From Candidatus Latescibacterota bacterium (GTDB lineage: Bacteria > Latescibacterota > UBA2968 > UBA8231): 64,000 nucleotides of DNA. The position numbers and the translations under genes are program-made. The DNA is taken from assembly GCA_965261395.1 (NCBI GenBank), contig OZ253462.1, positions 139,439 through 203,438 on the forward strand. Direction: 5' to 3'. Shown here in pieces: positions 33,447 to 53,236 of the stretch. The notes under the pieces are model-generated. The model did no database searches. It had not been told where the DNA came from and worked only from the letters and a program-made list of their open reading frames with translations. Within the stretch, counting starts at the first letter, position 1. The number at the start of each line of letters is the position of its first letter.

Positions 33447-34781
33447 CTATAGCCCCTGCATCGCTGATTCGGGATCGAGAATTACATCAGCAGCAATCAA
33501 TCGATCCTGTAGCTCGGCCATCGGCACGCCACGACTATCCACACCTGTTGCCCTTGCTATCGCAGCGGCCGTGCCAGCAGCCTGCCCCATGCCCATCGAG
33601 TTGGCTGTGACTCGACTTGATGCCAGGGCCTCTGAAGTTGCCGAGTGACAACGACCCGCAACCCAGAGATTCTCTACGCCCTGCGGCAGCAACGTTCTGT
33701 ACGAAATATCGTACGGCGGTACGATCGGCTGATCGTGATACCCGGCTGCGTCCTCAGGATGCCGGTCTATCCTCCACGCCCCAAGCACTACTACGTCATC
33801 CTGTCGTTTCGCAGTTCTTATATCGTCGCCGGTCAGCATGTAATCGCCGACGATTCTTCTGGATTCTCGCGATCCAGCAGTCGGACCACTGGTGAAAAAG
33901 TATGCGTCTTTGAACTCGGGTAGTGCTTCTTTCCAGAGCTCGAACATGGTCCACGCATCACGTCGGCCCTGGATTTCTGCGTTCGTCCAGTCTTGCGGAT
34001 TAGTTGCGTTTCTGGGAGTGCGAATCACATTGAAATAGATGTCTCGACCTGAGAAAGTTGCCGGCCACGGACCACCATAAAGGCCGATCTTTCCTTCGGC
34101 ACGTGCCTTCTCCAGAACGGCCGCACATTTACGACGCAGCTCAAATGTAAGTTCAACAAAGCCAATTCGGAAGTGCAAGCTCATCGGCTGAAGCGACTCG
34201 GCGACCTCGTATGGACATCCTGCCCAGGCGGCGACATCGGCATCACCCGTGGCATCGATAACGTACTGGGGTCGTATAGCGACGAGGCCGTCTTTGTTGC
34301 TGACTACGACACTGTCCACCCGGTCACCCTTCACGATCACGTCAGACACCTGTGTGTGGAAAAGCGGATTTACGCCAGACTCGACTAAAACGTCATCCGC
34401 AGCCTTCTTGAACAACTCCGGATCAGTGCGCGGAATTACGCGATCAGGATGCTTTTCGACCTCGGTGAAATCACCGTTCACGTTGTATGAGAGATGTCGA
34501 GCCTGCCCGGGCTCAACCACCCCCATTCGTTCGAGCATCTCAAAGACAAGTCCACCCACAACAGGCTTACCAGTCTCTTCGTAGACGAATCCATCGAACG
34601 CCGAGCCGATGATGTTCGTAAAGAACCCACCGGCAAATCCCATGCGGTCAACTGCCATCACAGAAGCACCGTTCCGTGCCGCGCCAACAGCCGCACCAAT
34701 ACCCGCCAGCCCCGTTCCGCAAACGAGAACATCTGGTTCAGCGACTACAGGAAGTGATTTTGTGTACTGGATTATGGACAT
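33447..34781 (-). CDS. FAD-dependent oxidoreductase
   Basis: 444 aa with the dinucleotide fold DVLVCGTGLAGIGAAVGAARNGASVMAVDR. Confidence 0.75.
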   Translation of the reverse strand: MSIIQYTKSLPVVAEPDVLVCGTGLAGIGAAVGAARNGASVMAVDRMGFAGGFFTNIIGSAFDGFVYEETGKPVVGGLVFEMLERMGVVEPGQARHLSYNVNGDFTEVEKHPDRVIPRTDPELFKKAADDVLVESGVNPLFHTQVSDVIVKGDRVDSVVVSNKDGLVAIRPQYVIDATGDADVAAWAGCPYEVAESLQPMSLHFRIGFVELTFELRRKCAAVLEKARAEGKIGLYGGPWPATFSGRDIYFNVIRTPRNATNPQDWTNAEIQGRRDAWTMFELWKEALPEFKDAYFFTSGPTAGSRESRRIVGDYMLTGDDIRTAKRQDDVVVLGAWRIDRHPEDAAGYHDQPIVPPYDISYRTLLPQGVENLWVAGRCHSATSEALASSRVTANSMGMGQAAGTAAAIARATGVDSRGVPMAELQDRLIAADVILDPESAMQGL

Positions 34782-34823
34782 GATTTGCTACTCGACCAGC
34801 CCCCAATCCCCAGCCCCCGCTTC

Positions 34824-35561
34824 TCAATGCTTACACGCCACATGTCGATCTTCATATATTCCCTTTAGAAACTTTTCTGGATTGAGTTCTTCGGGCAAAT
34901 AATGCCATGCCGTACTATAGCGCGTGCGATTGCTGTGGTTATCATAAGCACCGTGCAAGAGATTGGCGGAAAACAGAACAACCGTGCCAGCGGGAATGAC
35001 CAGATCCACAGCCTGCGATTCATCGACCTCTGTCCAACTGCCATGCCTGCTTGGATCTCTGCGGTGCTCGACAATCTCGCCCATCCGGTGGCTGCCGGGC
35101 ACCACCCGCAAACACCCATTCTCCACATCTGAATCTTCCAGATAAATTCCGCAACTGATAATGCGATCCGTATCAGTCCCAAAATAAAAACTGTCCTGAT
35201 GCCAGCCCGTTGACGTGCCGCCGTTGGGCAACTTCGGAAAGAACTTGGTGCCAAACACATCAAAATTTTCACCAATCAATACTGCTACACGGTCTAAAAT
35301 CGCCGTTTCACGCGCCAGTTCCAACACGCGGGAATCGACCACGCAAACACCCTGAATTTTGTGCAACAAACCCGCCCGGGGTTCACCGCACTCGTCCAAC
35401 TCGAGCGTCCAGTGCGGCACCTGCTCGGTCAGCTTGCGCCCCTCTGCGACTAGTTCATCAAACACCTGCTTGTAATAGGCCAATCGCTCGCCTTGAATCA
35501 GGGTTTCAAAAACAAGATAGCCATCTTCTCGAAACTGCCGCGCCTGTTCGTCTGTCAACAT
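34824..35561 (-). CDS. phytanoyl-CoA dioxygenase (PhyH) family Fe(II)/2-oxoglutarate oxygenase
   Basis: 245 aa with MLTDEQARQFREDGYLVFETL, WHQDSFYF and LHGAYDN. GAGGAGG lies upstream. Confidence 0.8.
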   Translation of the reverse strand: MLTDEQARQFREDGYLVFETLIQGERLAYYKQVFDELVAEGRKLTEQVPHWTLELDECGEPRAGLLHKIQGVCVVDSRVLELARETAILDRVAVLIGENFDVFGTKFFPKLPNGGTSTGWHQDSFYFGTDTDRIISCGIYLEDSDVENGCLRVVPGSHRMGEIVEHRRDPSRHGSWTEVDESQAVDLVIPAGTVVLFSANLLHGAYDNHSNRTRYSTAWHYLPEELNPEKFLKGIYEDRHVACKH

Positions 35562-35578
35562 TCTTGTTCCTCCTCAAG

Positions 35579-35595
35579 GTATAGGAAAAATAAGG
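35579..35595 (+). repeat. 17-nt copy of the 5' terminus of the island repeat family, at the composition break
   Basis: gtataggaaaaataagg is identical to 41811-41827 and has 1 mismatch to 49499-49515. It lies 18 nt upstream of the PhyH start. AT-rich DNA begins immediately to its right. Confidence 0.7.
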
Positions 35596-37729: not shown

Positions 37730-38010
37730 GGTAGGCCGGGGAGACTGTCTGACGAATCGCCTCTTGCAGCCCCCGTGATCGACATTACACAACCCTTAGT
37801 TACGCACCCGTCCGGTCGCGTGCGTCGCGAGGCAGTTCGCCTCCTGCAAGGAGCCTAGCCGCCACACCGGATGCACTCGCACCAAGCCGAACTCCCGGTT
37901 GCCCCAGTGTCGGGGGGCGTCCTCGGTAGCAGCGCTACTGCGGAGGATGGACGCCCGAACCTGCTCCATTTCCCGAGCCAGATTCCCCTTGTATGGGAAC
38001 GAGAGAGGGC
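37730..38010 (+). repeat. island repeat family, copy D (divergent 5'/central part, conserved 3' module)
   Basis: 37918-38010 reads gtcctcggtagcagcgctactgcggaggatggacgcccgaacctgctccatttcccgagccagattccccttgtatgggaacgagagagggc. It matches 49678-49770 and 44325-44404 with scattered substitutions. Confidence 0.65.
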
Positions 38011-38013
38011 ACG

Positions 38014-38199
38014 TCGCAAGCGCTGGCCGGCGCATGCCCCGGTGGCGATGGTCCCTCGCACCGAGGCCGCCGTCAGGGCGGCCAGCACGGGCTCCTCATC
38101 GGCGAACTGATCGGCGTCGAGTAGGCCGTGTTGGGTACACAGGCGGATGATGAGGCGCGCACTCGTCTGCACGATCTGCTGCACCTCTGGGTCGGACAA
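38014..38199 (-). pseudogene. internal fragment resembling an IS91-family (Y2) transposase
   Basis: The fragment is IVQTSARLIIRLCTQHGLLDADQFADEEPVLAALTAASVRGTIATGACAGQRLRRAL. It resembles the ...R.L.R.GLL......D..L..L...S...RIA.GP.AG.. region of IS91/IS801 transposases as I remember them. It has no catalytic region, and repeat copy D abuts it. Confidence 0.35.
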
Positions 38200-38207
38200 C
38201 GGCGGGG

Positions 38208-38414
38208 CTGACAGCCGGAGAAATTGAGATCCTCACGCTGTTTGCCACTGGCAAATCGTACGCTCAGATAGCAGAGGTGAAGGGCAACAGCCCGATTACT
38301 GTTCGGAATGCCATCTACCGCATTTAAGATAGACTTGGAGTAAAGACCAAACAGGAAGTCGTAGGGTGGGCAGTGCGAAATGGCTTGCTGGGTGACATGC
38401 AGCTAGACGACTAG
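38208..38414 (+). pseudogene. LuxR/GerE-type HTH fragment with an in-frame stop
   Basis: LTAGEIEILTLFATGKSYAQIAEVKGNSPITVRNAIYRI*DRLGVKTKQEVVGWAVRNGLL has TAA at 38325-38327 where family members have Q/K. There is no N-terminal domain and no start codon. Confidence 0.65.
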
Positions 38415-38705
38415 CGCCCGCTGGCAGCGGTCAGGTCAGACTTCGTAGGATGTACGACAGTTGAGGTTGTCGGTTCGGTTTCAGTTCCATTGAGACCTTC
38501 CAGCTGAACATTCGCAATACACAATAGACACGAAAAACTCAGGTAATCGTGGCTGGTGGGGCTAAAGCCAGCACGTAGTCGGACGACACCATTCGTGTGG
38601 GGTGGTATCGTCCCCGAGGAGGACCCGTTGTCTCCCCCTTCGGCATCCGATAGCCACCGCGCGGCCCGGTGAAAATGTAGGTGGGATTGCCCCACGGCAT
38701 ACCAC

Positions 38706-40178
38706 TCAAGCACCCCCACCTTTCGGTTCCGCCGATTGCGTTGACTGACTTTGCCCGCCCTCTCCAGCTGACATCACTAAGCGGTCCCAGTCGGGAGCGC
38801 TTCCATCTCGCAACAAAGCCAACAGAGTGTCTCGGGCCAACTGCCGACCATCGGACAGCGCTTTCCCAAGGTCAATCCGTTTCCGCCTTGCCCGTGACCC
38901 GTGGACCAAAGCGGAACGCGCACCATAGAAATCCTTGACTTTGCGAAATATCCCTATGCGTTCTTCACCGTTGGTCCCGAGGAGATACCCGGCGCGGGTT
39001 TCCAACTTATAGGTGATCTCTGGTGCGTCCAAGCTGTACATGGTCTCAAGAGCTATGGCGGTATCTAGGATGCGGTCTTCTGTACCGAATCGCCCAACTC
39101 TCGAAGGCAAACCCCCGAGCCGTCGGATGGCAAGGCCAAGCCGATCCCGGTCGTCCTGGTACATTCGCCAAGCCCGAACCATTTCAAGAAAGACTTCTGC
39201 ACTGTCCTCAGAAAAGTGATTCTCACGCCACCAGTCGTTCGCCCACCCCCCACCACTGGTCCACCCGAATTTAACGTTGGGGTCCAGGTCCTCCATCCAT
39301 TTGTCCACCCGCACATACTGCCGCCGCGATATTTGTTGTTCTCCAGTTGCAATACAGAGGAAGTCCCGTACCGTTTCGTGGTCCCTGGGGAATTGGTACG
39401 TGGACGACGGGTCTTCCATGGTTTCTTCCTCAAAGGAGAATCGGAACCGGGTATTTAAGATTTTCTCTGATTCCACCTCCGTCGAGGTAATTGCAGGCCC
39501 CCAGGTCAGTTCTCTGACGAGCGCCGCGATGCTCTCCGGAGCTTCATCCAAGGGATGACGCTGTTCGATGCCCGCTGGAAGGTGCCTAAGATTCAGGAAC
39601 GGGAACTCGCCACAAATCGCTTTAGCCTCTTCGTAGGGAGCCAGGAACGCGCCATCCCCGATGTCAAGGCGGCGATCCAACTTGAGTCCGTAGAATAGAG
39701 TAACCTCGTAAGCCTTGAGATCCCGGGCCTCACCCAGCGTCAGGAATCGGTGTAATGTCTCGGCGGCGTTGCTCCCGTCAGTTTTGATAGCCAGTTTGGT
39801 CAAGCTAAGCGCCAAGGTCTTTAGTTCGACACGAAACGCGCCGTATGGTCTTAGAAAATGAACAGCTTGGCCTTGGCTGGAATGGTCCAACGCCTGGCGT
39901 ATCACCGGATGTTCACATAGGGCTGCCTTCACATCGGCCGGGTCGTCATCAAACCATAGGTGGGATTCTTCGAATGCAACCTCCGCGCCGGGTTCATGTT
40001 GCGCCCTACTTGCCAGGGTGCGGTACTCCTCATATGACACCTGTCCGGTATATCTATGGACCCGTCCGAAATCATCGACTTCCTCATAGGGGACCATTGG
40101 TCTTACCCTTGGGGCCAGAGCCATCAGGCTGGCAGCCAACCCTTCAATCCAGCAACTAAGTTCGAAATCTTGCTTCAT
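38706..40178 (-). CDS. hypothetical protein with a C-terminal HEPN-like domain (Apea-like; Rx4H)
   Basis: 490 aa. The C-terminal ~130 aa read RLGLAIRRLG...EDRILDTAIALETMYSL...EITYKLETRAGYLLG...IFRKVKDFYGARSALVHGS. I verified the RSALVH codons at 38918-38901. GAGGAAGG lies upstream of the ATG. Confidence 0.6.
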   Translation of the reverse strand: MKQDFELSCWIEGLAASLMALAPRVRPMVPYEEVDDFGRVHRYTGQVSYEEYRTLASRAQHEPGAEVAFEESHLWFDDDPADVKAALCEHPVIRQALDHSSQGQAVHFLRPYGAFRVELKTLALSLTKLAIKTDGSNAAETLHRFLTLGEARDLKAYEVTLFYGLKLDRRLDIGDGAFLAPYEEAKAICGEFPFLNLRHLPAGIEQRHPLDEAPESIAALVRELTWGPAITSTEVESEKILNTRFRFSFEEETMEDPSSTYQFPRDHETVRDFLCIATGEQQISRRQYVRVDKWMEDLDPNVKFGWTSGGGWANDWWRENHFSEDSAEVFLEMVRAWRMYQDDRDRLGLAIRRLGGLPSRVGRFGTEDRILDTAIALETMYSLDAPEITYKLETRAGYLLGTNGEERIGIFRKVKDFYGARSALVHGSRARRKRIDLGKALSDGRQLARDTLLALLRDGSAPDWDRLVMSAGEGGQSQSTQSAEPKGGGA

Positions 40179-40442
40179 CCTTCCTCACCTCTTTTGGGAA
40201 TTGGCTTCGTGCTCCGAACCCCCAAGCCGATCTGGAGGACGCATCATCACAGACCCCTTACAGGTTCTCCTTGTCAGGCGGTCCCTCTGAGTAGGACTGG
40301 AACAAAGCCGGCTACGTTCTCATCGAGTCGGGCGCTTTCCCGGTCGGCCCTTCGCCGACAGTCAGCAGGCCAGCCAAGCACGAGGCGTGGGAGGATGGCT
40401 CCACCAGCGCAGTGGAAAACATTCTCGCCCGCCGCAGTATCG

Positions 40443-41750
40443 TCACGGAACAGCCATGTAGAACTCCATCAAGTGGGGGAGTAGACTCAGCGCATGGAGG
40501 TGCTCTCCTAGCTGAGAGACGAACACTGACTCAGTATCATCTGGGTCAATGTTGTCAGACGCTACGTGAAACACAATGTTCCGAAAGTATCTAAGCTTGG
40601 GCGGAACGGCTTGCGGTCCCGCAATTCCTTCAATCTCATCGTGTCGTAACTCAGGAAACTCTTCGACAGCCTGGTGGTATATCCTCAGAGGTTCGGCAAG
40701 CAATGCGGTACTCACGCGCACCGGAGCAATCAGGTTTTGAGCCTGCTGATCGGTGATTGAGCTAGTATCCATGACCAATAAATCAAAGGGGCTGTGGGCA
40801 TCCAGTTCAGTCCGGCTTCTGATTGCTCGTAACTTGCTGATGTCGAGTAGATTCACAAACTCATTTGACAGTACCAGAGACCGCATCAGAATTCTCACGC
40901 AGTCCGTCTTAGCCTCCTGAACAAAGGATGGATAGCGTGGCCCATGGCTGACATTGTGCTTTCTGAACAACCCGAGCATATACCATGTTCGCAGGTTAAA
41001 CGGTGTCTGGGTTGATTCATCAGTTGGGGTGTTGTATAAGCCGGGCAATGGACGCGAGAAAACTTCCCACCTCTTATGCAATTTTGAAAGTTTGTCCTTG
41101 TCAGCTGGTCCAGAAGATTTGTTGGCGCGAAGTAACTCTTCGCCGACCAACTCGGATAATGACCATCGGAGCCATGCTGCATACGCATCAATTGCCGACT
41201 GAGCCTTAAACACAGTGGAGTAGTAGTGACCATCTATCCCTCCGCCAGTCTCCATGAAGTTGTCGAGTGCGTCATGGAGATGTATTCGTTTAGCAGGATG
41301 CAACACCTTATCCCTAAGAGTGGTCAGATGTTGAATAGTAGTCTCGTTGGACTGGAACAAGGCTTCGAGGGGATCGAAGAGGAGGGCTGGGTCTCTTCTT
41401 GACTCCCTTCTATAACTCTCCAATTCCGCAGAGAGTAGGCACAAGTACATTTCCCATGGAACCCAAGTCACAAACTCCAATATCCTGCGACTATTTAAGT
41501 CTGGGTCGAGGTCTTGGTCTTGGAACATCAGGTTATATACGGCGTCAATGTCCCTGTCATCGATCAGTTGGGACATGCCTAGATTCTTCATCACACGAGT
41601 TTGGTGGTTGATATTGCGGAATGCAATGACGCGAACACCTTCCAATATGACACTCCGGTGATACTGAAGGTTTCGGTAGTGCTTTATTGCCTCATTCGGC
41701 AAATGGCTTCGCATTTTCTTATAGGCACCCTTATGTTTATCGGTCATCAT
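40443..41750 (-). CDS. hypothetical protein with two Rx4H (HEPN-type) motifs
   Basis: 435 aa. I verified TLRDKVLHP (codons 41315-41298) and YFRNIVFHV (codons 40583-40566) on the sequence. No other family signal recognised. Confidence 0.5.
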   Translation of the reverse strand: MMTDKHKGAYKKMRSHLPNEAIKHYRNLQYHRSVILEGVRVIAFRNINHQTRVMKNLGMSQLIDDRDIDAVYNLMFQDQDLDPDLNSRRILEFVTWVPWEMYLCLLSAELESYRRESRRDPALLFDPLEALFQSNETTIQHLTTLRDKVLHPAKRIHLHDALDNFMETGGGIDGHYYSTVFKAQSAIDAYAAWLRWSLSELVGEELLRANKSSGPADKDKLSKLHKRWEVFSRPLPGLYNTPTDESTQTPFNLRTWYMLGLFRKHNVSHGPRYPSFVQEAKTDCVRILMRSLVLSNEFVNLLDISKLRAIRSRTELDAHSPFDLLVMDTSSITDQQAQNLIAPVRVSTALLAEPLRIYHQAVEEFPELRHDEIEGIAGPQAVPPKLRYFRNIVFHVASDNIDPDDTESVFVSQLGEHLHALSLLPHLMEFYMAVP

Positions 41751-41808
41751 TCAAATCCCCAATGTTCAATGGATTGCGACGCTCAGATATCGGAGGCGGC
41801 TGTATGTT

Positions 41809-41999
41809 ATGTATAGGAAAAATAAGGCCCGATGTCGGTACTATGCAGTTCGCTGAAAACGTACGCAAGGGGCCAGCAGGGTCCCTGATGAATCGCTTGT
41901 CGTCGTCCAGCATCGTTCGGGACTGCTCTCAGTACCGTTGTAAAGGATTTCTGTGCGTTTCAGGGGTCAGCCCGGTACTTGAGGGTGCACTCCTCCGTA
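41809..41999 (+). repeat. island repeat family, copy A (5' and central modules; 3' module missing)
   Basis: It aligns to 49497-49689: atgtatagGaaaaataaggcCccgatGtcggtactatgcaGttcgctgaaaacgtacgcaagggg...caggggtca.. It diverges after tcctccgta, where the IS110-like fragment begins. Confidence 0.8.
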
Positions 42000-42033
42000 C
42001 CGCTCACGGCGCCGGGAGCGAATCGGGAGGAGG

Positions 42034-42219
42034 TCAGGCAGCGAACTCAAACTGCGGCTGAGGCGGGCCCTCGGCGGGGGCACCGCCGGCAGCCTTACCC
42101 CGCATCAGCACATCACGCCGGTCCGTCTTCACCCGCTCCCCACTGCGACGCGAGATCCGACTCGGTGCCACCACCTCGCACCGGTGGCCCGCTTGGCTAC
42201 TTCGGTCGCGCGAAGGCAA
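42034..42219 (-). pseudogene. short fragment resembling the IS110-family (DEDD) transposase N-domain
   Basis: EVVAPSRISRRSGERVKTDRRDVLM contains the KTDRRDA-like signature. Only about 25 residues are similar. Confidence 0.3.
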
Positions 42220-44151
42220 CGAGCGCGGCGTCTGGCCCGGTGCCCGTCGCGATGACGATGAACTGCCGCCCCGACCGCGCCCGGTAGGTCATCGGGTTCG
42301 CGTTCGTTGGAAACGGCGTCGCGCCACGCCAGACCTCGGTGCCCGTCGCCTTGTCGAACGCATATAGGTACGGAGTGCCGCCGCCGAGGAACACGAGGCC
42401 CCCCTTGGTCACCATCGGGCCGGAGTTGCCGCGCGTGCCCAGCCGCTCCGGCAGCTCGACGCCGCGCAGCAGCGGGTGATTGCGGATCTCGGGGCTGCCC
42501 TCACCGAACGGTATCTTCCACGCAATCTCGCCAGCATCGAGGTCAATAGCCACTAGGTGCGCGTACGGCGGCTTGATGAGCGGAATCGGGCCGAGCTTGC
42601 TCTCCGGGGTTTGCGCGGTGCCCGGTCCGTCGGCCTCCCGAAACATGAGGAGCGACGCACCCCATAGGGACAGTTGTTGCTGTACTCGACGTCGACTTCC
42701 GGGTCGTTGCCCGCATTCTCGCACAACTGGTTCGTGTCGGCGTCTTCCGATGTCCGAACGTACAGCAGCCCGGTCTCGGGATCAAAGGCCGCCCCGCCCC
42801 AGTTCGCGCCGCCGCTGGCGCCCGGGCGCTGGAGCGTCCCCTGAAGACTCGGCGGCGTGAAGAGCGGACCCAGCCGGAACCGCTGCATCTCCTCCACCGC
42901 GAGCGCGTGGATCTCCGGCGTCAGATCGTTCGCGTCCTCCAGCGACACCCCCTGCCTGCTGAAAGGCGGCGGCTTGGTCGGGAACGGCTGCGTCGGATAC
43001 AGCACCTCGCCCGGCACGTCCGTCGTCGTGTCCACCGCACGCTCCTCGATTGGCCACACCGGCTCGCCCGTCACCCGGTCGAACACGTACGTGAAGCCGT
43101 GCTTGGAAACCTGCGCCACCGCGTCGATCTCGCGCCCGTCCACCGTTACCGTCACGAGGTTCGGCGCTGCGGACAGGTCGTAGTCCCACACGCCGTGATG
43201 CACCGCTTGGAAGTGCCACTGCCGCTCACCCGTGCGCACGTCGAGGCACACCAGCGACTCGGCGAAGAGGTTCGCCCCCACCCGGCGGCCACCCCAGTAG
43301 TCGCTGCTCGGCGTGCTCGTCGGCACGTACAGCAGCCCGCGCTCGGCGTCGAGCGATATCAGCCCCCACACGTTGGCGTGGCCGGTGTAGCGCCACGACT
43401 CGTCCTCATAGGTGTCCGCGCCGAAGTCGTCGCTCGATTGCGGGATGGTGAAGAAGACCCAGCGGCGCTCGCCCGTGCGGGCGTCGAACGCCTGCACGGT
43501 TCCGGGGGTGTCGAACTTTCGCTGCAGCCGGTCAGGCACGCGGCTTCCCACGATCACTAGGTCCTCGAACACCACCGGCGGCGAGGTCTGGTCGAACTCG
43601 TGGCGGGTCACCGGGCGGCCATGGCCCTCGGTCAGCACAACGCTCCCGCTCTCGCCGAAGTCCGTGTCTAGCTCGCCGGTCGCGGCATCGATTGCGTACA
43701 GCCGGTCGCGGCTGTTGAGGAAAACGCGGTCGTCGTCGCCGTCGCTCCAGTAGGCGATACCCCGGTGCTTGAAGCCCCTCGGCCCCACACCCTTGGGCCC
43801 ACCTTCGTAGGCCTTGGGATCAAAGGTCCACAGTTCGGCACCCGTCTCCGCGTCGAGAGCCACCACACGCGTGTACATGGTGGAGAGGTAGAGGACGTTG
43901 CCGATCATGATGGGCGTTGCCTGGAATGGGCCCGGCCGGATGCCGTACTCCGCGAGGGGCATCTCGTTCGGCTCCCATTGCCAGACGATCTCCAGTTCGT
44001 CGACATTCGCGGCCGTGATCTCCTCAGCCGCCGAGTACTTAGTGGGCGCCTGCTCGGCACCGACGTACGGCCATTCAATCATGACGCCCGATTCCTGGGC
44101 GCCTGCGAGGGTGGTAAACAAGAGGGCGGCTGTCGCAACGAATCGCTTCAT
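42197..44151 (-). pseudogene. PQQ-dependent dehydrogenase (secreted beta-propeller), disrupted by a 1-nt frameshift
   Basis: The start is MKRFVATAALLFTTLAGAQE at 44151. ORF 42553..44268 carries the N-terminal ~530 aa and ORF 42197..42724 the C-terminal ...LIKPPYAHLVAIDLDAGEIAWKIPFG...RQFIVIATG. Adding one G to the GGGG run (+ strand cccc, 42659-42662) joins them as ...EYSNNCPYGGASLLMFREADGPG... Confidence 0.75.
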
Positions 44152-44191
44152 GGAGGGGAATCCGATTGGAGAATGGAAACTAGTTTCGCGG

Positions 44192-44227
44192 CGTATTCTA
44201 CGTATTCTAGGTATTCTACGTATTCTA
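44192..44227. repeat. 9-bp tandem repeat x4 (cgtattcta / ggtattcta)
   Basis: Copies lie at 44192-44200, 44201-44209, 44210-44218 (g variant) and 44219-44227. The array sits 41 nt upstream of the PQQ-DH start and directly abuts repeat copy B. Confidence 0.9.
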
Positions 44228-44404
44228 GATATCATGGGTCGGCAATATGCAGTTCGCTGAAAACGCACGCAAGGGTCCAGCAGGGTCTCTGATGAATCGC
44301 TTGTCGTCGCACAGAATCGTTCGGGCTACTGCGGAGGGTGGATGCCTGAACCTGCGCCATTTTCCTAGCCAGATTCCCCTTGCCTGGGGACGAGAGAATG
44401 CCCC
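44228..44404 (+). repeat. island repeat family, copy B (5' and 3' modules; central ~85 nt absent)
   Basis: ...tcggcaatatgcagttcgctgaaaacgcacgcaagggtccagcagggtctctgatgaatcgcttgtcgtcgcacagaatcgttcggg is joined directly to ctactgcggagggtggatgcctgaacctgcgccattttcctagccagattccccttgcctggggacgagagaatgcccc. Confidence 0.8.
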
Positions 44405-44707
44405 TATCCGCGCTGAGCTACCAGCAGGACTATGAAGAGACCGGGAGATGGCGAAAACACTGGTGGCAAAAGATCGCAGCACGGGTGAAGAAAATGGATA
44501 GAAAGCCTGGGTTGGCTACGCAGTCGACGGCGACAGTCGAAATCGTCGGGACAGGGTACGACTTCATGACGAACCACGCTCCCCGAAGATAAAAGGCGTG
44601 TAGTACGAACCCGAGGGAAGTTACAGTGTCGAGGTGTAGGGGCTCGTCGGGAAGGCCGAATGGACCCGTCCGGCGAGATTTGTATGCGATCATTTTGCAT
44701 CGGCTAC

Positions 44708-44736
44708 TTGACAATCAGCCGTAAACACCGTAAGCT
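44708..44736 (+). promoter_or_regulatory. sigma70-like promoter TTGACA-17 nt-TAAGCT, probably giving a leaderless XRE mRNA
   Basis: TTGACA lies at 44708-44713 and TAAGCT at 44731-44736. ATG 44743 follows 6 nt later and there is no SD sequence. The palindrome gtaagcttac (44730-44739) overlaps the -10. Confidence 0.4.
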
Positions 44737-44742
44737 TACAAC

Positions 44743-45087
44743 ATGTCCAAGACGTTGGGTGAGCGTATTCGCGAGCTGCGTGATCAGGCAGATCTCTCCC
44801 TACGCGACCTGTCAAAGAGGACCGGTGGCCTGACGGCTGCTTTCCTTTCGGATATTGAGCTGGGGCGACGTTTTCCCTCAGATGATGCCCTTGTCCGTTT
44901 GGCCAAGGCGTTGGGGACGACAGTCGAGGATCTTCGAACCTACGACACGCGTCCGCCAGTACAAGAGATCAAGCGGTTATCCGCGCAGAATCCCGCAATC
45001 GGTGCGGCTTTTCGTAAGATCACCGAGATGACGCCGGAAGAGATACTGAAGATGGTTGAGAAATCGACAAGAAAGAAAAAAAAGTGA
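44743..45087 (+). CDS. XRE-family helix-turn-helix regulator (CapH-like)
   Basis: 114 aa with the HTH_3 pattern LGERIRELRDQADLSLRDLSKRTGGLTAAFLSDIELGRRFPS and a basic C-terminal tail. Confidence 0.85.
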   Translation: MSKTLGERIRELRDQADLSLRDLSKRTGGLTAAFLSDIELGRRFPSDDALVRLAKALGTTVEDLRTYDTRPPVQEIKRLSAQNPAIGAAFRKITEMTPEEILKMVEKSTRKKKK

Positions 45088-45779
45088 GGAGTCTACGCGC
45101 GGATTCGGGTCCCTTCACGGAGAAGCCATTCTTCACCGAGAGCGAGATCGAACGAATGTGCGAGTGTGCCCTCCGCGAAGCAGGATATTACCCTTCCGAA
45201 CCGTCGCGGGTGAACATCGACCGGTTTATCGAGAAGCACTTTGATGTTTCGCCACAGTTCGAGGATCTTCCGGAAGGAGTTCTCGGTTACTCTTGCTTCG
45301 GCGGCGATGGAATGATCAGCATGCACATTACGACGGCACTTACAAACGCGGGAACGCGAGTAGCCGAACGTCGCGTGAACACGACCCTAGCGCACGAGGC
45401 AGGTCACGGGCTGTTTCACTCATATCTCTTCAGCCTTGCTGAAGCCGGGTTAGAGCTTTTTGAGTCTGATCCCGATGTGACAAAGACTAGGATCCTCTGC
45501 CGCGATGAGAATACGCAACGGCAGAAGGTCAACGGGCGATGGTGGGAGACTCAGGCAAATATGGCGATCGGTCCCCTGCTGATGCCAAGATCACTTGTCG
45601 TGGAAGTGGTTAAGCCATTTCTTGTCTCTACAGGCCTCTTGGGAATCGGGGATGTGCCTGAAGATAAGCGCGAGAATGTGGTCGCGACGCTCTCCGACGT
45701 TTTCGACGTTAACCCTGTCGTGGCGCGTATTCGATTGGAGGGAATTTTCAAGCCCTCGGGGGGGCAGCTGTCGCTCTGA
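45084..45779 (+). CDS. ImmA/IrrE-family zinc metallopeptidase (CapP-like)
   Basis: 231 aa. The HEXXH motif is in TLAHEAGHGLFH (H104 codon 45393-45395). It shares a GTGA overlap with the XRE gene. Confidence 0.8.
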   Translation: MRSLRADSGPFTEKPFFTESEIERMCECALREAGYYPSEPSRVNIDRFIEKHFDVSPQFEDLPEGVLGYSCFGGDGMISMHITTALTNAGTRVAERRVNTTLAHEAGHGLFHSYLFSLAEAGLELFESDPDVTKTRILCRDENTQRQKVNGRWWETQANMAIGPLLMPRSLVVEVVKPFLVSTGLLGIGDVPEDKRENVVATLSDVFDVNPVVARIRLEGIFKPSGGQLSL

Positions 45780-45808
45780 TTTTTTTTGGATAAGATGTAA
45801 TCATTGTC

Positions 45809-45822
45809 AGCTTACATAAGCT
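45809..45822. promoter_or_regulatory. inverted repeat AGCTTA-ca-TAAGCT, candidate operator upstream of the Ubl operon
   Basis: agcttacataagct uses the same TAAGCT/AGCTTA half-sites as the palindrome at 44730-44739. Confidence 0.35.
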
Positions 45823-45883
45823 TCTATTGAACCTGAATTCCGGTCTCTATGGACGAGCCGGGATTGCGAGTAAAGGAGAAACA

Positions 45884-45952
45884 ATGGAAAAAATTTTGAC
45901 TTACCTTCGATATGGGAACCAACCGATGTCCATCAGAAAGGAAACCAACTGA
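45884..45952 (+). CDS. possible 22-codon leader ORF coupled to the Ubl gene
   Basis: AAAGGAG (45872-45878) is followed 5 nt later by the ATG at 45884. The peptide is MEKILTYLRYGNQPMSIRKETN. Stop TGA 45950-45952 overlaps the Ubl ATG 45952 (TGATG). Confidence 0.3.
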   Translation: MEKILTYLRYGNQPMSIRKETN

Positions 45953-46218
45953 TGTCCACCCCAAAGAAGATTTCAATCACCGTAGTCGTCAACGGCCAGC
46001 CAACTGTGGTCGATGCCAGCCAAGATGAACCCCTCGGTACGATTATTCCTGATGCGTTGCGTCAGACAGAGAACTCGGGCCAGCCACCAGAGAATTGGGA
46101 GCTCCGCGGTGCCGATGGGACGCTTCTTGACCTAGACAAGAAGATCGAGGACTACGGCTTCCCATCCAAGGTCCGCCTGTTCCTGAATCTCAAGGCGGGG
46201 GTTGGAGGCCATGGTTAA
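45952..46218 (+). CDS. ubiquitin-like beta-grasp protein (BilA-like), C-terminus ...GVGG-HG
   Basis: The 88-aa sequence is MSTPKKISITVVVNGQPTVVDASQDEPLGTIIPDALRQTENSGQPPENWELRGADGTLLDLDKKIEDYGFPSKVRLFLNLKAGVGGHG. The size, the alternating beta pattern, the Gly-Gly near the C-terminus and first position in an E2/JAB/E1 operon support the call. Confidence 0.7.
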   Translation: MSTPKKISITVVVNGQPTVVDASQDEPLGTIIPDALRQTENSGQPPENWELRGADGTLLDLDKKIEDYGFPSKVRLFLNLKAGVGGHG

Positions 46219-46816
46219 CGCGACCGAACAGCATGTAGACCCCGAGGTATCCCGTACCAAGTTCGATCGCGAGATTACCGAGTACCTTTCCCTTGAGGCT
46301 GACTACCGCGCCCGGGGCTGGTTTCTTGTGAAGGCGGACTGGCCTGTGGCAGTCGTTGTTCTGGCCTCGAATAAGACCAGCCCGCCGGCGATTGTGACCG
46401 CCGTCCAGTTCGACTATACGAACTATGACGCCGAGCCGCCCTCAGTTCGCATGACTGATCCGTTCTCCGGCCGATTTCTTCTAAGCAAGGAGCTCCCCAC
46501 CCGCCTCCTTCGCGCGATCCCCGGACCGGAGATGCCCCTACCGAACGGCACCAAGGTGCAGCAGGTATCGGTGCAGGAGCTGATGCAGGCTCACTCTCCG
46601 GAAGACCAACCCTTCCTCTGCGTAGCCGGGGTCAAGGAATATCACGACCACCCTGGCCATTCCGGTGACCAGTGGGAAATACACCGGTCCGCTGGCGAAG
46701 GTCGGATGGTTCGCCTGTTGGAGGTGATTTCCAAGTACGGCCTCGAACCGGTGCAGGGGTTCAACGTCAACCTCGTACCGCAAGTTACCTTCACTGTCTC
46801 GGAGCCTCCCCAGTGA
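46211..46816 (+). CDS. E2-like ubiquitin-conjugating enzyme homologue (BilB-like)
   Basis: About 201 aa from ATG 46211 (open from 46202). The candidate catalytic Cys is in QPFLCVAGVKEYHDHPGH (codon 46619-46621). Its position between the Ubl and JAB genes supports the call. The start overlaps the Ubl stop (ATGGTTAA). Confidence 0.6.
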   Translation: MVNATEQHVDPEVSRTKFDREITEYLSLEADYRARGWFLVKADWPVAVVVLASNKTSPPAIVTAVQFDYTNYDAEPPSVRMTDPFSGRFLLSKELPTRLLRAIPGPEMPLPNGTKVQQVSVQELMQAHSPEDQPFLCVAGVKEYHDHPGHSGDQWEIHRSAGEGRMVRLLEVISKYGLEPVQGFNVNLVPQVTFTVSEPPQ

Positions 46817-47304
46817 CCCTACGAGGCGTGCGGCGTTTTCGAATCCAGGCGAGTGCCATACGCGAAACCATGGAGGCGATTCGGTCTGCAGGACAGGATG
46901 GCTACGAGTTGTTCGTAGTATGGTCGGGTACGCGTGATGACGACATCTTCACCGTCGCCAAGGTGCATATCCCTAAACAAACCTCCTACAAACTCGATGC
47001 CGGACTCTGCGTACGAGTTGACGGTCCTGAGCTCCATCGCTTGAACATGTGGCTCTACGAGGCACAGCAGGCCATAGGAGTGCAGGTCCACGGTCATCCA
47101 GCCGATGCCTATCACTCGGAAACCGACGACACCTACCCGATCGCCACAATGCACGGAAGCCTATCCATCGTCCTTCCCTTCTTCGGCCACGACGGCTGGG
47201 AGTCAAGTGATATCGCGGCCTATCGTCTCGGGCAAGACGGATGGGTCGAACTAACCGGCCCCTTGAGTGACCTGATAGAGGTTGTTGACAATGGCGTTAG
47301 CTGA
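46813..47304 (+). CDS. JAB/MPN+ metalloisopeptidase (BilC-like)
   Basis: GTG 46813 overlaps the E2 stop (GTGA). 163 aa with the Glu in GYELFVVWSG and the motif HGHPADAYHSETD, which is HxH...SxxD (47089-47127). Confidence 0.8.
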   Translation: MTLRGVRRFRIQASAIRETMEAIRSAGQDGYELFVVWSGTRDDDIFTVAKVHIPKQTSYKLDAGLCVRVDGPELHRLNMWLYEAQQAIGVQVHGHPADAYHSETDDTYPIATMHGSLSIVLPFFGHDGWESSDIAAYRLGQDGWVELTGPLSDLIEVVDNGVS

Positions 47305-48796
47305 CTATTTCCCTCGCGACGCGGTCGCCATCTCGCAAGTGCTCCAGGGGTTTCAACGCGACGCCTTCATCGAAAAGCTCGAGGGTGTCCGAGTGGCAAT
47401 CGCCTTCGGCGAGGAGGCGGCTACCAGCCGCGACGGGCGCGAACTCCTTGATCTCTCTGTCAGGCTAGCGGCTCGCTTGTACCCGAGCCTGACGTTTGCC
47501 ACCGTTCCTGCCGGAGATCGGTTCGCCGATGAACTGATGGCGTTGGCCAGTAGCATCAACCCTAACATCGAAGCGTCTAAGACGGGTACTGCTAATGTTG
47601 GTCTCTCGATCGGCGGGGATGCACCGGCCCTAAACGCACCAACCGTATATGCTGGCTGCGATGGCTGGCTGGCCAAGGTGGGAACTGAGGGCCCATACAT
47701 GACCAGCGACCTAGGGAACCCCTTTGGAGCCGGCTTCGCCGCCTGCTTGGCGGCAGCCAACTTGTTTCGCTTCCTCTTCCTCCCCAACGGCACAACTTTG
47801 CTGGATACCGACATTAGTTTCCCTCCCGACGACGCCTCTTTCCCCAGTCTTGCGGCGTCCACACTGGCGGATCCCCTGGTGTTGGTCGGCGTTGGGGCGG
47901 TCGGCAACAGTGCCTCCTGGGCCCTATCGCGTACGCCGCTCACCGGCCAGATTTACCTAGTCGATCCACAAGTCGTCGAACTTAGCAATCTCCAGCGCTA
48001 CGTTCTTGGTGCACGGAGCGACGAAGGCGGCATCAAAGTTGATGTCGCTGCGAAGGAGTTTCGCGCCGCGCTACAGGCGCTTTCTCATCATGGAACATGG
48101 GCTTCCTTCCTCTGCGCCAATGGCTACAAGTGGGAACGCGTTCTAGTTGCCCTCGACTCCGCCCATGACAGGCGAGCCGTACAAGGGAGCCTGCCACGTT
48201 GGATCGCTAACGCATGGACCCAAATAGGCGATCTCGGCGTGTCCTCTCACTCTTTCTTGGGTCAAGACGCCTGTCTTGCCTGCCTTTACTTGCCAACCGA
48301 GAAATCCAAGAGCGAAGACCAGATCGTCGCTGAAGGCCTTAAGATCCCTCAATTCCAGGATCCGGTTCGCTTTCTGCTCGGAAGCGGGCAGGCGACCGGC
48401 AAGGAGCTCTGTGACGCGGTTGCTGCCGCTTGGGGCATCCCGGCCGAGACACTGGAGCCTTATATAGGTAGGTCGATACGTGAACTTTGGGTGGAGGGCA
48501 TCTGTGGCGGCGGTATCATTCCTCTCGGAGAAGCCGGACCTACTCCGGGAGACCGGCAAGTTCCGCTTGCTTTCCAATCGGCTCTTGCCGGTATGCTGCT
48601 GGCCGCGGAAACGGTACGCGACGTGTTGACCGACGGTGCTCAACGCAAGACCCTCATGCGCCGGCTTGATGTCTTGCGCCCCTTAGGCGATCCTTCACCC
48701 CAACCGGCGCTCAAGGCCGGAACGGGTAGCTGTATCTGTGAGGATCGCGATTTTATTACTACCTATCGAACAAAGTATGGAGCAGAAACTGGCTGA
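47291..48796 (+). CDS. E1-like ThiF-family adenylating enzyme (BilD-like)
   Basis: About 501 aa. An N-terminal degenerate domain precedes the active Rossmann domain, which has LVLVGVGAVGNSASWAL, VDPQVVELSNLQRYV, LDSAHDRR and DACLACLY. It overlaps the JAB gene by 14 nt. Confidence 0.8.
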   Translation: MALADYFPRDAVAISQVLQGFQRDAFIEKLEGVRVAIAFGEEAATSRDGRELLDLSVRLAARLYPSLTFATVPAGDRFADELMALASSINPNIEASKTGTANVGLSIGGDAPALNAPTVYAGCDGWLAKVGTEGPYMTSDLGNPFGAGFAACLAAANLFRFLFLPNGTTLLDTDISFPPDDASFPSLAASTLADPLVLVGVGAVGNSASWALSRTPLTGQIYLVDPQVVELSNLQRYVLGARSDEGGIKVDVAAKEFRAALQALSHHGTWASFLCANGYKWERVLVALDSAHDRRAVQGSLPRWIANAWTQIGDLGVSSHSFLGQDACLACLYLPTEKSKSEDQIVAEGLKIPQFQDPVRFLLGSGQATGKELCDAVAAAWGIPAETLEPYIGRSIRELWVEGICGGGIIPLGEAGPTPGDRQVPLAFQSALAGMLLAAETVRDVLTDGAQRKTLMRRLDVLRPLGDPSPQPALKAGTGSCICEDRDFITTYRTKYGAETG

Positions 48797-48812
48797 CTTT
48801 GATGGCTGATTG

Positions 48813-48838
48813 GAGCGGGTTAGCTGATCGACCCGCTC
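48813..48838. terminator. hairpin between convergent genes (possible bidirectional terminator)
   Basis: gagcgggt (48813-48820) pairs with acccgctc (48831-48838) around a 10-nt loop. There is no clear U-tract. Confidence 0.35.
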
Positions 48839-48851
48839 TAGGCATCGAGTC

Positions 48852-49184
48852 CTACGCCTCAACAAGCCAATCCTCACACGGTTTATACCCTTCATTCACC
48901 GCATCCTGATAGTAAGATGTGAGGCCAGAGACGGCCCTATTAAGGGCATGCGCAGGATCATCGGCGCACGGAAGGCTGGTCCGGTAGGCATCCACCTGCC
49001 TAGGCGTATGAATCACATGGCTGACCTCAAAGGTTGTCTTTTCGCTGCTCATAAATCTACAAAGTCTTATGGTGATGTGAGTCTTAAGATCTCCAAGCCG
49101 GATGACGAACCTTCCTAGGTCATCATCTCGTTCAAGTACGGTGATGAGATCCTGGTCCAAGACGTTATCAAAGGTGTAAGGCAT
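48852..49184 (-). CDS. hypothetical protein, convergent with the Ubl operon
   Basis: A 110-aa ORF with GAGGAGG 6 nt upstream of ATG 49184. No family recognised. Confidence 0.55.
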   Translation of the reverse strand: MPYTFDNVLDQDLITVLERDDDLGRFVIRLGDLKTHITIRLCRFMSSEKTTFEVSHVIHTPRQVDAYRTSLPCADDPAHALNRAVSGLTSYYQDAVNEGYKPCEDWLVEA

Positions 49185-49496
49185 CGAACTCCTCCTCTGT
49201 GAGTTGGTTTAACTTCTCTATGTGCCGGGCCAAGGGAGGAACGTCCGTGCTGACTTCGACCCCTCCCTTTGGATGGCCCGGCAACTCTTCTCAATCCTGC
49301 TTCGTTGGTGGCTAGGGGCCTACTACCGGCTTGAGTAAGGGCTTTGTTTTTGTGACGGTCACCGTTAGATCCTCAAAGGCGACTTCTTGGTTGCCACCAA
49401 CAAAGACACCTACACTCCCTCCATAAGCAGTAAAACCCCGCCAATACCGACTATTCCAAACATAGCGTCTGCACTGGCATCTTTTCCTAAATAGAA

Positions 49497-49770
49497 ATGT
49501 ATAGAAAAAATAAGGCACCGATATCGGTACTATGCAATTCGCTGAAAACGTACGCAAGGGGTCAGCAGGGTCCCTGATGAGTCGCTTGGTCGTCGCACCG
49601 AATCGTTCGGGAATGCTCAGAGCACCGTTGTAAAGGATTTCGGCGCGTTTCAGGGGTCAACCTAGTACTTCCCCCCGTCCTCCGTAGCAGCGCTACTGCG
49701 GAGGGTGGACGCCCGAACCTGCGCCATTACCCGAGCCAGATTCCCCTTGCTTGGAAACGAGAGAACGCCC
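49497..49770 (+). repeat. island repeat family, copy C (complete: 5', central and 3' modules)
   Basis: It contains all segments shared with copies A (41809-41999), B (44228-44404) and D (3' module). It ends 74 nt before the katG ATG. Confidence 0.8.
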
Positions 49771-49784
49771 TTTATTATTTCTAA

Positions 49785-51977
<2,193 letters not shown>

Positions 51978-52147
51978 TCTCAGCGGGGTGCTCGGTAACG
52001 GTGGTCTCCGGTGCATCTGAGGGCCGCCTTGTGACTCCGTCGATGATGCCCGCCGACGGAGTCGCAAGGTGGCAACCCAAGGCAAAACAACCGGATACGA
52101 CGCGAAATTCTTTGGCGGCCCCAAGGTCGCGCTCTTCGAGTCCCACT

Positions 52148-53236
52148 ATGGCCCATCGTCCTCGCATCCTCTTCCTCGCCCGCCGCTACCCGCCCACCAT
52201 CGGTGGCATCCAGACCCACTGTCACGCGCTCTATACCCGACTGGCCAACCAAGCCCAAGTCCGTCTCGTCGCGCTGGGCCGCCAATCGCTTCTGCATCTA
52301 ACTTGGTTCCTCCCCTATTGCTTCGCTGTCGCCTTTTGGGCCGTGCTCGGCCGCCGCGTCGATGCCGTGTACTTCGCCGACGGGGTCGCCGCGTCGTTGG
52401 CTCCACTCCTGCGTCCTTTGGGTCCGGCGCGATTCGTCACCACCGTCTATGGCCTCGAAATGACCTACAAAAATCCCCTCGCGCGCGCGCTGATGCACTG
52501 GGGAGTCCGCGCCTGCGACAAGGTCGTCGTCATCAGCGAACACAGCCGCCGCATTACCGCTGCCAGCGGCGTCCCCGAGGCCAAGTTGGAAATCGTCTAT
52601 CTAGGGGTTGAGCCGCTGGAGTTGGCACCAGACGAGTTGGCAGCCGTCCGAGCGCGCTTTGAGCAGGAACACGGGCTGCGCTTTGGCCAAGACCGCATCC
52701 TGTTGCTTTTCGGCCGCCAGGTTCCCCGCAAGGGCATGGTCGAATTTTTGGCAAAAGGTATGCCCCTGCTCGACGCGGATATTCGCCTCTTGATCTGCGG
52801 TCCGCCAGCAAGCGAGACCGCACGCTTGCAGGAGTGCTGTCAATCGGGCCTAAAGGACCGCGTCACCTTGCTCGGGCCAGTCCCCGACGATGTGCTGGCC
52901 ATGCTGCGCACCAGTTGCGATCTTTTCCTCATGCCCAACCTCCACCTACCCGGCGATGTCGAAGGCTTCGGCCAGACCCAACTCGAATGTATGTACGCTG
53001 GCACCCCGGCCGTGGCCTTTGCTGTCGATGCCCTGACCGAGAGCGTGCGCGAAGGCGGATTTCTCGTTGACCCGGAAGATTACCCGGCCTTCGTCGCGCA
53101 AATCCATCGCTTCCTCGCGCTCGGCCCGGCGGAGCGCGCCGATATCGGCCGCCAGTGCCGCGCCTACGTGCGACGCGAATACGCTCAGCAAAGAATCGCC
53201 GCCCAATACATGGATCTCTTTACTGGAAGGATCTAA
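52148..53236 (+). CDS. glycosyltransferase family 4
   Basis: The start is MAHRPRILFLARRYPPTIGGIQTH at 52148. The EX7E motif is EGFGQTQLECMYAG. The upstream part of ORF 51935..53236 overlaps katG. Confidence 0.8.
   Translation: MAHRPRILFLARRYPPTIGGIQTHCHALYTRLANQAQVRLVALGRQSLLHLTWFLPYCFAVAFWAVLGRRVDAVYFADGVAASLAPLLRPLGPARFVTTVYGLEMTYKNPLARALMHWGVRACDKVVVISEHSRRITAASGVPEAKLEIVYLGVEPLELAPDELAAVRARFEQEHGLRFGQDRILLLFGRQVPRKGMVEFLAKGMPLLDADIRLLICGPPASETARLQECCQSGLKDRVTLLGPVPDDVLAMLRTSCDLFLMPNLHLPGDVEGFGQTQLECMYAGTPAVAFAVDALTESVREGGFLVDPEDYPAFVAQIHRFLALGPAERADIGRQCRAYVRREYAQQRIAAQYMDLFTGRI

Follow-up and report, generated by a model that had tools for sequence, protein, structure and literature searches.

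Intergenic repeats at the gene-block joints of a Latescibacterota-labelled defence island are very probably decayed ends of IS91/ISCR-type elements

Introduction

In ISCR1, a 232-bp oriIS region holds two outward promoters that raise the expression of the gene beyond it, and the region beyond is variable (PMC6218425). The oriIS ends of elements of the IS91 insertion sequence (IS) family carry subterminal palindromes and take part in one-ended transposition, and these elements miss terIS in 1–14% of events, with the result that neighbouring DNA is moved (PMC13181058). Here we analyse a family of modular, same-orientation intergenic repeats (copies A to D) in 64,000 nucleotides of a Candidatus Latescibacterota bacterium (GenBank assembly GCA_965261395.1, contig OZ253462.1, positions 139,439 to 203,438 of the forward strand), a stretch that we call the window, where the repeats lie at the joints of gene blocks beside the catalase-peroxidase gene katG. 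We find that the whole family very probably consists of decayed ends of IS91/ISCR-type rolling-circle elements. On the minus strand, the 5′ and central modules match the ~225 nt of noncoding sequence with which an IS91-family element ends after its transposase stop codon (an A-type end), an assignment well supported by homology; on the plus strand, the 3′ module is likely the final ~90 nt of such an end from a second IS91 subfamily (K-type), facing katG.

The resemblance to ISCR elements lies in the Y2 HUH family of the transposases concerned, in the ~225 nt after the stop codon (against 232 bp in ISCR1) with one fixed boundary, in the diverse unrelated genes just outside that boundary, in same-orientation copies that separate gene blocks, and in a terIS side that is often missing in ISCR elements too (PMC6218425). 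There are also clear differences: the host is an uncultured organism known from a Latescibacterota-labelled metagenome-assembled genome (MAG), the cargo comprises defence and metabolic genes rather than resistance genes, the sequence is unrelated to ISCR1, no intact transposase gene is left here, two ends of different subfamilies stand back to back, and the outward promoter activity is in our case a prediction. With IS91, IS801, and IS1294 the repeats share the combination of PF14319 and PF04986 in the homologous transposases, distinct ends that lack terminal inverted repeats, an imperfect subterminal palindrome close to the tnpA-downstream end, and one-ended transposition as a possible route to variable-length copies that share one end (PMC13181058).

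Other described systems are similar in part. Putative mobile promoters, some families of which are IS-derived, are noncoding sequences of high similarity that precede unrelated genes, both within a taxon and across taxa (Matus-Garcia, Nijveen, and van Passel 2012; PMC3575422), as are the present repeats; the difference is that for the latter we can name the source element, and that a transposon terminus is part of the shared stretch. The core defence hotspots cDHS1 and cDHS2 of Pseudomonas aeruginosa, for which recombination via the conserved flanks has been proposed, likewise combine conserved flanks and strain-variable defence genes with the absence of an integrase from the region (PMC10250203), whereas our locus has repeated IS ends at its internal joints and is defined as a hotspot from only ~15 genomes. 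REP/BIME and BOX elements are also modular, mosaic intergenic repeats with palindromes, but they are short, high-copy, and dispersed, whereas the repeats studied here are low-copy, clustered, and continuous with a transposase gene.

The A-Type End

The identification of the 5′ and central modules rests on elements in which a transposase gene is still attached to them. Positions within the repeat (q) are counted from 49497, the start of copy C. Element L196 (genome G101) has 229 nt between its transposase stop codon and a terminus that is also that of the repeat (...CCTTATTTTTCCTATACAT); this stretch is 86% identical to copy A over q1–293 and 83% to copy C over q1–209. An intact element on a metagenome contig (L138), with a transposase of 475 aa, has the same transposase-to-end layout at 67% identity. 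The distance from stop codon to terminus is ~225–229 nt in five elements (L196, L138, L194, L197, and L198), and the same contiguity is found in partial elements in G029, in G032, and at 2.12 Mb in the window's own genome. Because the transposase stop runs on into repeat sequence in these elements, the 5′ and central modules are very probably the transposase-distal noncoding end, which by its position corresponds to the oriIS side of IS91 and ISCR1.

The left edge of the repeat is sharp, with every copy starting at ATGTATAG, and the A-type end stops at a CCTATAC(A/T)T motif. A regular-expression scan recovered 31 distinct flanks behind ...CCTATAC, which diverge after two more bases. The second of these is T in 30 of the 31 flanks, and the first two follow the subfamily and may belong to the element. 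Start codons lie 15–60 nt beyond the terminus and belong to at least 10 unrelated gene families, including those of a PhyH protein, a flavin adenine dinucleotide (FAD) oxidoreductase, a PIN protein, and the 435-aa gene beside copy A. A 16-nt imperfect palindrome (49515–49530) is situated ~20 nt from the terminus, and other IS91 subfamilies have a different sequence in its place. The repeat shows no coding periodicity, and a small open reading frame (ORF) inside it was rejected on this ground.

Transposase Remnants

Two fragments of transposase genes adjoin the repeats. The peptide encoded at 38035–38232 (minus strand), next to copy D, has 75 homologues, most of which carry PF04986, with or without PF14319. 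The long ones among them (~475 aa, P0003 and P0006 included) combine PF14319 (Zn_Tnp_IS91) with PF04986 (Y2_Tnp) and are, judged by sequence, IS91-family (Y2 HUH) transposases; the peptide corresponds to residues 202–274 of P0003 at 81% identity and is 75–84% identical to the ~475-aa proteins. The protein homology search thereby bears out an earlier sequence-only reading, which had placed copy D against an IS91-like fragment. Searches with Pfam and NCBIfam of the 125-aa ORF beside copy D gave nothing. A Pfam scan of the whole genome for Y2_Tnp (PF04986) found no match because only noncatalytic transposase fragments remain, and a protein search with the fragment was needed. In the genera of G101, G103, and G104, nearly full-length frames exist.

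The other fragment continues copy A. The sequence-only reading had copy A possess the 5′ and central modules and then give way to an IS110-like piece; the modules are indeed present, whereas the replacement does not take place after q174, where copy A goes on for ~120 nt with the remainder of the IS91 noncoding end and the last transposase codons. The IS110-like remnant begins only near 42100, beyond this IS91 tail, and the continuation past q174 recurs in G032, G029, and G052. The peptide encoded by the last codons, module E of Table 1, matches the C termini of the transposases (...EFA in P0003; ...FEFAA* in L196, L177, and L197), and copy A runs into the end of a transposase gene.

Further pieces of insertion sequences were noted. 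A 45-nt IS110-like piece (42157–42201) recurs in isolation, at 91–96%, in the same hotspot of three other genomes (L040, L044, and L046); a Pfam scan of the whole genome for DEDD_Tnp_IS110 found no match. At 3309–3539 on the minus strand, a weak tblastn match (E 0.003–0.009, ~30–44%) to IS91-family transposases of other subfamilies is possibly another old IS91 remnant.

The 3′ Module and katG

A terminal motif of the type GCC-TTTATT-n-CCTAT(A/C)C is common to the ends of IS91-family elements throughout the class. We find this motif on both edges of copy C, at the matching edges in relatives, and before a 663-aa gene in G022, and it is exactly at this point that homology ends in copy B (through a deletion of ~10 nt) and in copy D (through fusion to the transposase fragment). 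Oriented as those transposase genes are, q213–293 of copy C is 72% identical to the end that follows a transposase fragment in G059 (L141), with 97% over 31 nt, and 71% identical to that in G062 (L171). Since an A-type and a K-type edge occur in one copy, copy C would be two outward-facing ends back to back with the transposase genes deleted between them, a reading that is fairly well supported for the 3′ part.

The back-to-back arrangement is old and is conserved before katG across the genus. In G009, G020, and G021, the full repeat forms the ~300-nt divergent region between the oxidoreductase/PhyH operon and katG, and q230–304 is conserved before katG even in a few MAGs labelled Gemmatimonadota and Opitutales. 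A sigma-70-like site (TTGGAA-16-TATTAT) lies inside the 3′ module at 49751–49778.

The katG protein itself is 84–92% identical to those of MAGs labelled Dehalococcoidia, Chloroflexota, Gemmatimonadota, and Opitutales (loci L052–L131) and ~73% identical to those in Poribacteria-labelled records. Sequence identity of this order suggests a wide horizontal spread of katG. A subset of the foreign katG records shares ~140 nt upstream of the gene, the IS-end motif included.

Repeat Copies in the Window and in Related Genomes

Copies were detected by reading the sequence, by a repeat search, and by BLAST against the whole 6.55-Mb genome, and all four that had been claimed, modular and in one orientation, are present at their coordinates (Table 1), with matches well beyond chance (BLAST E 1e-18 to 1e-48). 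As described before, they form a modular family at the joints of gene blocks and are linked to IS91-like and IS110-like remnants. Copy C is the full unit (49497–49770), and its homology with relatives extends to ~49788. Over the part of copy A that the two share (41809–41980, q1–174), identity is 88.5%. Copy B joins the 5′ module straight to the 3′ module and lacks ~80 nt, close to the ~85 nt first estimated, and copy D combines a divergent front with a conserved 3′ module; the region 37743–38006, which spans both parts of copy D, matches L043 at 6991–6729. The inner boundaries of the copies are scattered (q40, 58, 115, 174, 209, 223, 230, 268, and others). From their sequence, copies A, B, and D appear to be further truncated or rearranged versions of the ends.

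Table 1. Positions of repeat copies, transposase remnants, and neighbouring genes in the window
Feature	Coordinates	Strand	Remarks
Solo A-type terminal motif (minus-strand CCTTATTTTTCCTATACC)	35579..35595	-	~17 nt upstream of the PhyH dioxygenase start codon
Copy D front	37743..37917	+	not homologous to copy C; 87.6% to the native katG upstream region of G010
Copy D proper, apparent internal K-type piece (q180–268)	37918..38006	+	ends just short of the terminal motif; 92% to copy C
Internal IS91-family transposase fragment, residues 202–274 of a 475-aa protein	38005..38232	-	fused directly to the end of copy D
Uncharacterised gene pair	38706..41750	-	block between copies
Copy A, apparent complete ~225-nt A-type end	41809..42033	-	terminus 41809
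Module E, stop codon and last ~22 transposase codons	42034..42101	-	encodes ...PQPQFEFAA*; stop 42034–42036
IS110-like remnant, ~28 residues with KTDRRD	42100..42200	-	in-frame fusion to module E; NF033542, E 0.021, 14 bits, weak
Copy B left half, apparent internal A-type piece (q28–115)	44239..44325	-	89%; without the terminal 27 nt; just upstream of the leftward PQQ dehydrogenase gene
Copy B right half, apparent K-type piece (q196–274)	44325..44403	+	89%; ~10 nt with the TTTATT part of the terminal motif deleted
Copy C left part, apparent A-type end (q1–209)	49497..49705	-	terminus 49497
Copy C right part, probable terminal ~80–90 nt of a K-type end	49709..49788	+	faces katG; ends ...CCCTTTATTATTTCTAATTCC
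katG (catalase-peroxidase)	49845..51977	+	starts ~57 nt past the K-type terminus

The closest public relatives of the organism are MAGs labelled Candidatus Latescibacterota. We searched 61 genomes, the window's own (G000) included, and found the repeat family in 37 of them, nearly always as clusters of same-orientation pieces. A genome-wide BLAST returned six matches in 6.55 Mb, five of them at this locus, and no other full copy; a 50-nt solo piece of the first module lies between convergent genes at C1:5002291, and diverged relatives (62–80%) occur at 2.12 and 2.93 Mb. A strict 30-nt pattern, which proved too strict, matched nothing in the genome contigs. The same fused variant as copy B is found before katG in G001 and beside the same dehydrogenase gene in G010.

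Two loci with several copies were observed elsewhere. One is a second variable locus in the window's own genome (L132, C1:2115000–2129000), which contains three copies of the IS91 end in diverged form, an IS5-like transposase ORF, and several pieces of IS91 transposases (residues 340–475). The other, in G032 (L036/L037, C1:4334000–4371000), is an island of similar make-up that lacks an intact transposase, where 33 kb contain at least six A-type ends with Fic, SIR2-like, PIN, and aldo-keto reductase genes in between; an ORF just upstream of one of the repeat copies in G032 was considered as a transposase and rejected, as it encodes a Fic-domain protein.

A Strain-Variable Island beside katG

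The repeats are part of a strain-variable defence island, or hotspot, beside katG. Its left flank (a 669-aa gene, an FAD-dependent oxidoreductase, and a PhyH dioxygenase) and its right flank (katG) are conserved, and the gene content between them varies from genome to genome. An insertion of 13.9 kb sets the window apart from G022. On either side of it stands a direct repeat of 17–20 nt, which is the first part of the repeat described here and whose left copy is the solo motif at 35579–35595. Where the window has two copies of this sequence, G022 has one: 34793–35595 and 49496–53000 both map onto L039 at ~8063–8082. In four sets of metagenome DNA contigs, the coverage of the island blocks differs between samples, and some contigs join copy B to copy C, copy B to katG, or copy C to copy A at homologous repeat positions; these joins, which have short sides and 90% likeness, could stem from other strains and are a weak hint only.

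Alternative Explanations

Several observations weigh against reading the repeats as IS91-type ends. The assignment of the 3′ module depends on 71–72% identity over ~80 nt to two elements and on the shared motif, and the same stretch is the conserved upstream region of katG with its sigma-70-like promoter; a native katG promoter and an IS end with an outward promoter are not fully separable here. A GTTC/CTTG target tetranucleotide next to the end is typical of IS91, and this hallmark is apparently not seen at the present termini, where one of the 31 flanks begins with it (CTTG). Neither the window's own genome nor 60 relatives yielded a match to this transposase over its full length, and a terIS-side (5′) end was not found either, the region common to L138 and L139 being unmatched in the window, the genome, and related loci; we do not count the latter against the repeats as ori-side ends, because ISCR elements are often without terIS. 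Ordinary deletion could yield the variable inner boundaries as easily as aberrant transposition, and promoter activity, one-ended transposition, and recombination between copies are all steps that we infer.

The first of these points leads to the explanation that competes most directly, namely that the repeats are copies of a native katG promoter or leader, duplicated or imported by homologous recombination between strains, with the IS fragments as bystanders. It would account for the full copy being the orthologous upstream region of katG across the genus, for the B-type and D-type variants serving as native katG leaders in G001 and G010, for the sigma-70-like site and the presence of q230–304 before katG in MAGs with other phylum labels, and, weakly, for the contigs from other metagenomes that join copies at homologous positions. 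We nevertheless consider it unlikely, since several independent elements show the 5′ and central modules running unbroken into a transposase stop codon and diverging along with the transposase subfamily, since the modules also occur far from any katG (at least four copies in G032 and those at 2.12 Mb in the window's own genome), and since random segmental duplication would not give an identical terminus in ~30 contexts. For the stacking of copies the katG-leader explanation can still hold, and to that extent it is compatible with an origin from IS91 ends.

The remaining explanations are those that the sequence-only reading had offered, and we find little in favour of any of them. It had considered a structured noncoding RNA, while recognising no known RNA family, and the latter remark stands: a search of Rfam was empty at the gathering score and even at E ≤ 1. 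A noncoding RNA or cis-regulatory leader, for example a minus-strand attenuator (sensor, hairpin, and U-run) before diverse genes, is suggested by a 6-bp hairpin followed by a T-run in the first 40 nt of the minus strand, 15–60 nt before start codons, and by some local hairpins predicted in the repeat. This we hold to be highly improbable. Copy C folds no better than its shuffles on the two strands (z-scores −0.36 and −0.59), and RNAalifold, applied to 24 copies of the 3′ module, to the 5′ module on either strand (19 copies), and to a set including diverged paralogues, gave −1.8, −8.0, −5.2, and −0.07 kcal/mol with 0–3 compensatory pairs. The 12-bp hairpin pointed out earlier is present in copies C and D, yet it is deleted or replaced in several others, and its columns pair no more often than shuffled ones (63.8% vs. 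64.1%). Diverged family members swap the palindrome for unrelated sequence and keep the terminal motif, and the attenuator was dropped after reverse-strand alignments that included diverged paralogues. An equally slight chance attaches to the proposal that the repeats are of the REP/BIME/BOX type or a specific target for IS91 or IS110 insertion: modules are present or absent in mosaic fashion, IS remnants adjoin copies A and D, and a GC-rich palindrome occurs in copies C and D, but the 6.55-Mb genome holds only ~5 close copies, all but one at a single locus, the palindrome is not dispersed in it, and the repeat sequence is part of the IS91-family ends themselves and not of the flank. Least probable of all are site-specific recombination sites (attC-like or similar to Xer/dif modules) delimiting true cassettes. 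The single orientation and sharp edge of the copies, the direct repeat that brackets the island, and the single-copy "empty site" in G022 fit such sites, but the window contains no tyrosine recombinase (Phage_integrase; the four in the genome are >3 Mb away), an inspection by eye showed no attC-type layout of R and L boxes and a reversed GTT...AAC order, and breakpoints other than the terminus are scattered. As a recombination site the repeat would be credible only in the sense of an oriIS-type end at which a rolling-circle transposase acts. A dif/Xer-like site and sigma-54, extracytoplasmic function (ECF), and Bacteroidetes-type promoter motifs were also looked for by eye in the first 40 nt, with no convincing match.

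Proposed Mechanism and Significance

The geometry of the locus matches a capture model: one edge is fixed, the inner ends are variable, unrelated genes stand just outside, and same-orientation copies lie between foreign blocks. If the repeats are IS91-type ends, the gene blocks between them (an uncharacterised pair, a pyrroloquinoline quinone (PQQ) dehydrogenase, and capH/capP with Bil genes) were probably brought in or reshuffled between the ends. One-ended rolling-circle transposition could have achieved this, and so could homologous recombination among the repeated ends, which would explain the gain and loss of blocks equally well. As in ISCR1, the ends probably contain outward promoters that would read into the genes 15–60 nt beyond and, if so, would set the expression of the adjoining accessory genes. 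A bolder extension, which we regard as doubtful, is that transposase-less ends of two IS91 subfamilies are still, or were recently, used in trans for one-ended transposition, that the katG site is a self-renewing landing pad assembling defence systems (Bil with capH/capP, and the gene pair), and that katG has been carried between phyla together with an IS-derived promoter.

What seemed to be a new system of repeats, RNAs, or cassettes thus receives a concrete identity, decayed IS91/ISCR-type ends, and so matches an already described kind of element. It is mobile-element debris of a type already known, from a phylum that has received little study: ISCR/IS91 "common regions" with a new host and a cargo other than resistance genes, and our understanding of how IS91-family elements work is unchanged by it. 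Here, in an uncultured phylum, such common regions mark the places where the gene blocks of a chromosomal defence hotspot meet. For Latescibacterota and related MAGs, the ~225 nt after a transposase stop codon that end in a CCTAT(A/C)C-type motif provide a signature for annotation. Back-to-back ends before katG throughout a genus, and a widely shared katG directly behind an IS end, are curiosities in their own right.

Gene Blocks of the Island

The block nearest copy A is the uncharacterised pair of Table 1, whose first gene is the leftward 435-aa gene; the terminus of copy A lies 58 nt upstream of it. Between the IS91 fragment and this pair, 38154–38327 (plus strand) encodes an isolated LuxR/GerE-type helix-turn-helix fragment of 57 aa (best E 1e-5). 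The next block is the PQQ-dependent dehydrogenase gene (42197–44268, minus strand), which looks frameshifted. It is split into two overlapping frames, 42553–44268 covering profile positions 1–452 of 595 and 42197–42724 covering positions 484–595, which points either to a pseudogene with a frameshift or to an error in the assembly. Between copies B and C, 44743–48796 contains capH-like and capP-like regulators, a small ubiquitin-like (Ubl-like) ORF, and genes matching BilB, BilC, and BilD; the helix-turn-helix gene of the capH/capP block has a TTGACA-17-TAAGCT site of its own.

In the left flank, a comparison of 33447–35561 with L048 (4900–7887) shows the FAD oxidoreductase and PhyH genes in the opposite order to that in G009, G001, and others. 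A second PhyH paralogue (256 aa) is missing from the window, and relatives carry solo IS-end motifs at the affected junctions.

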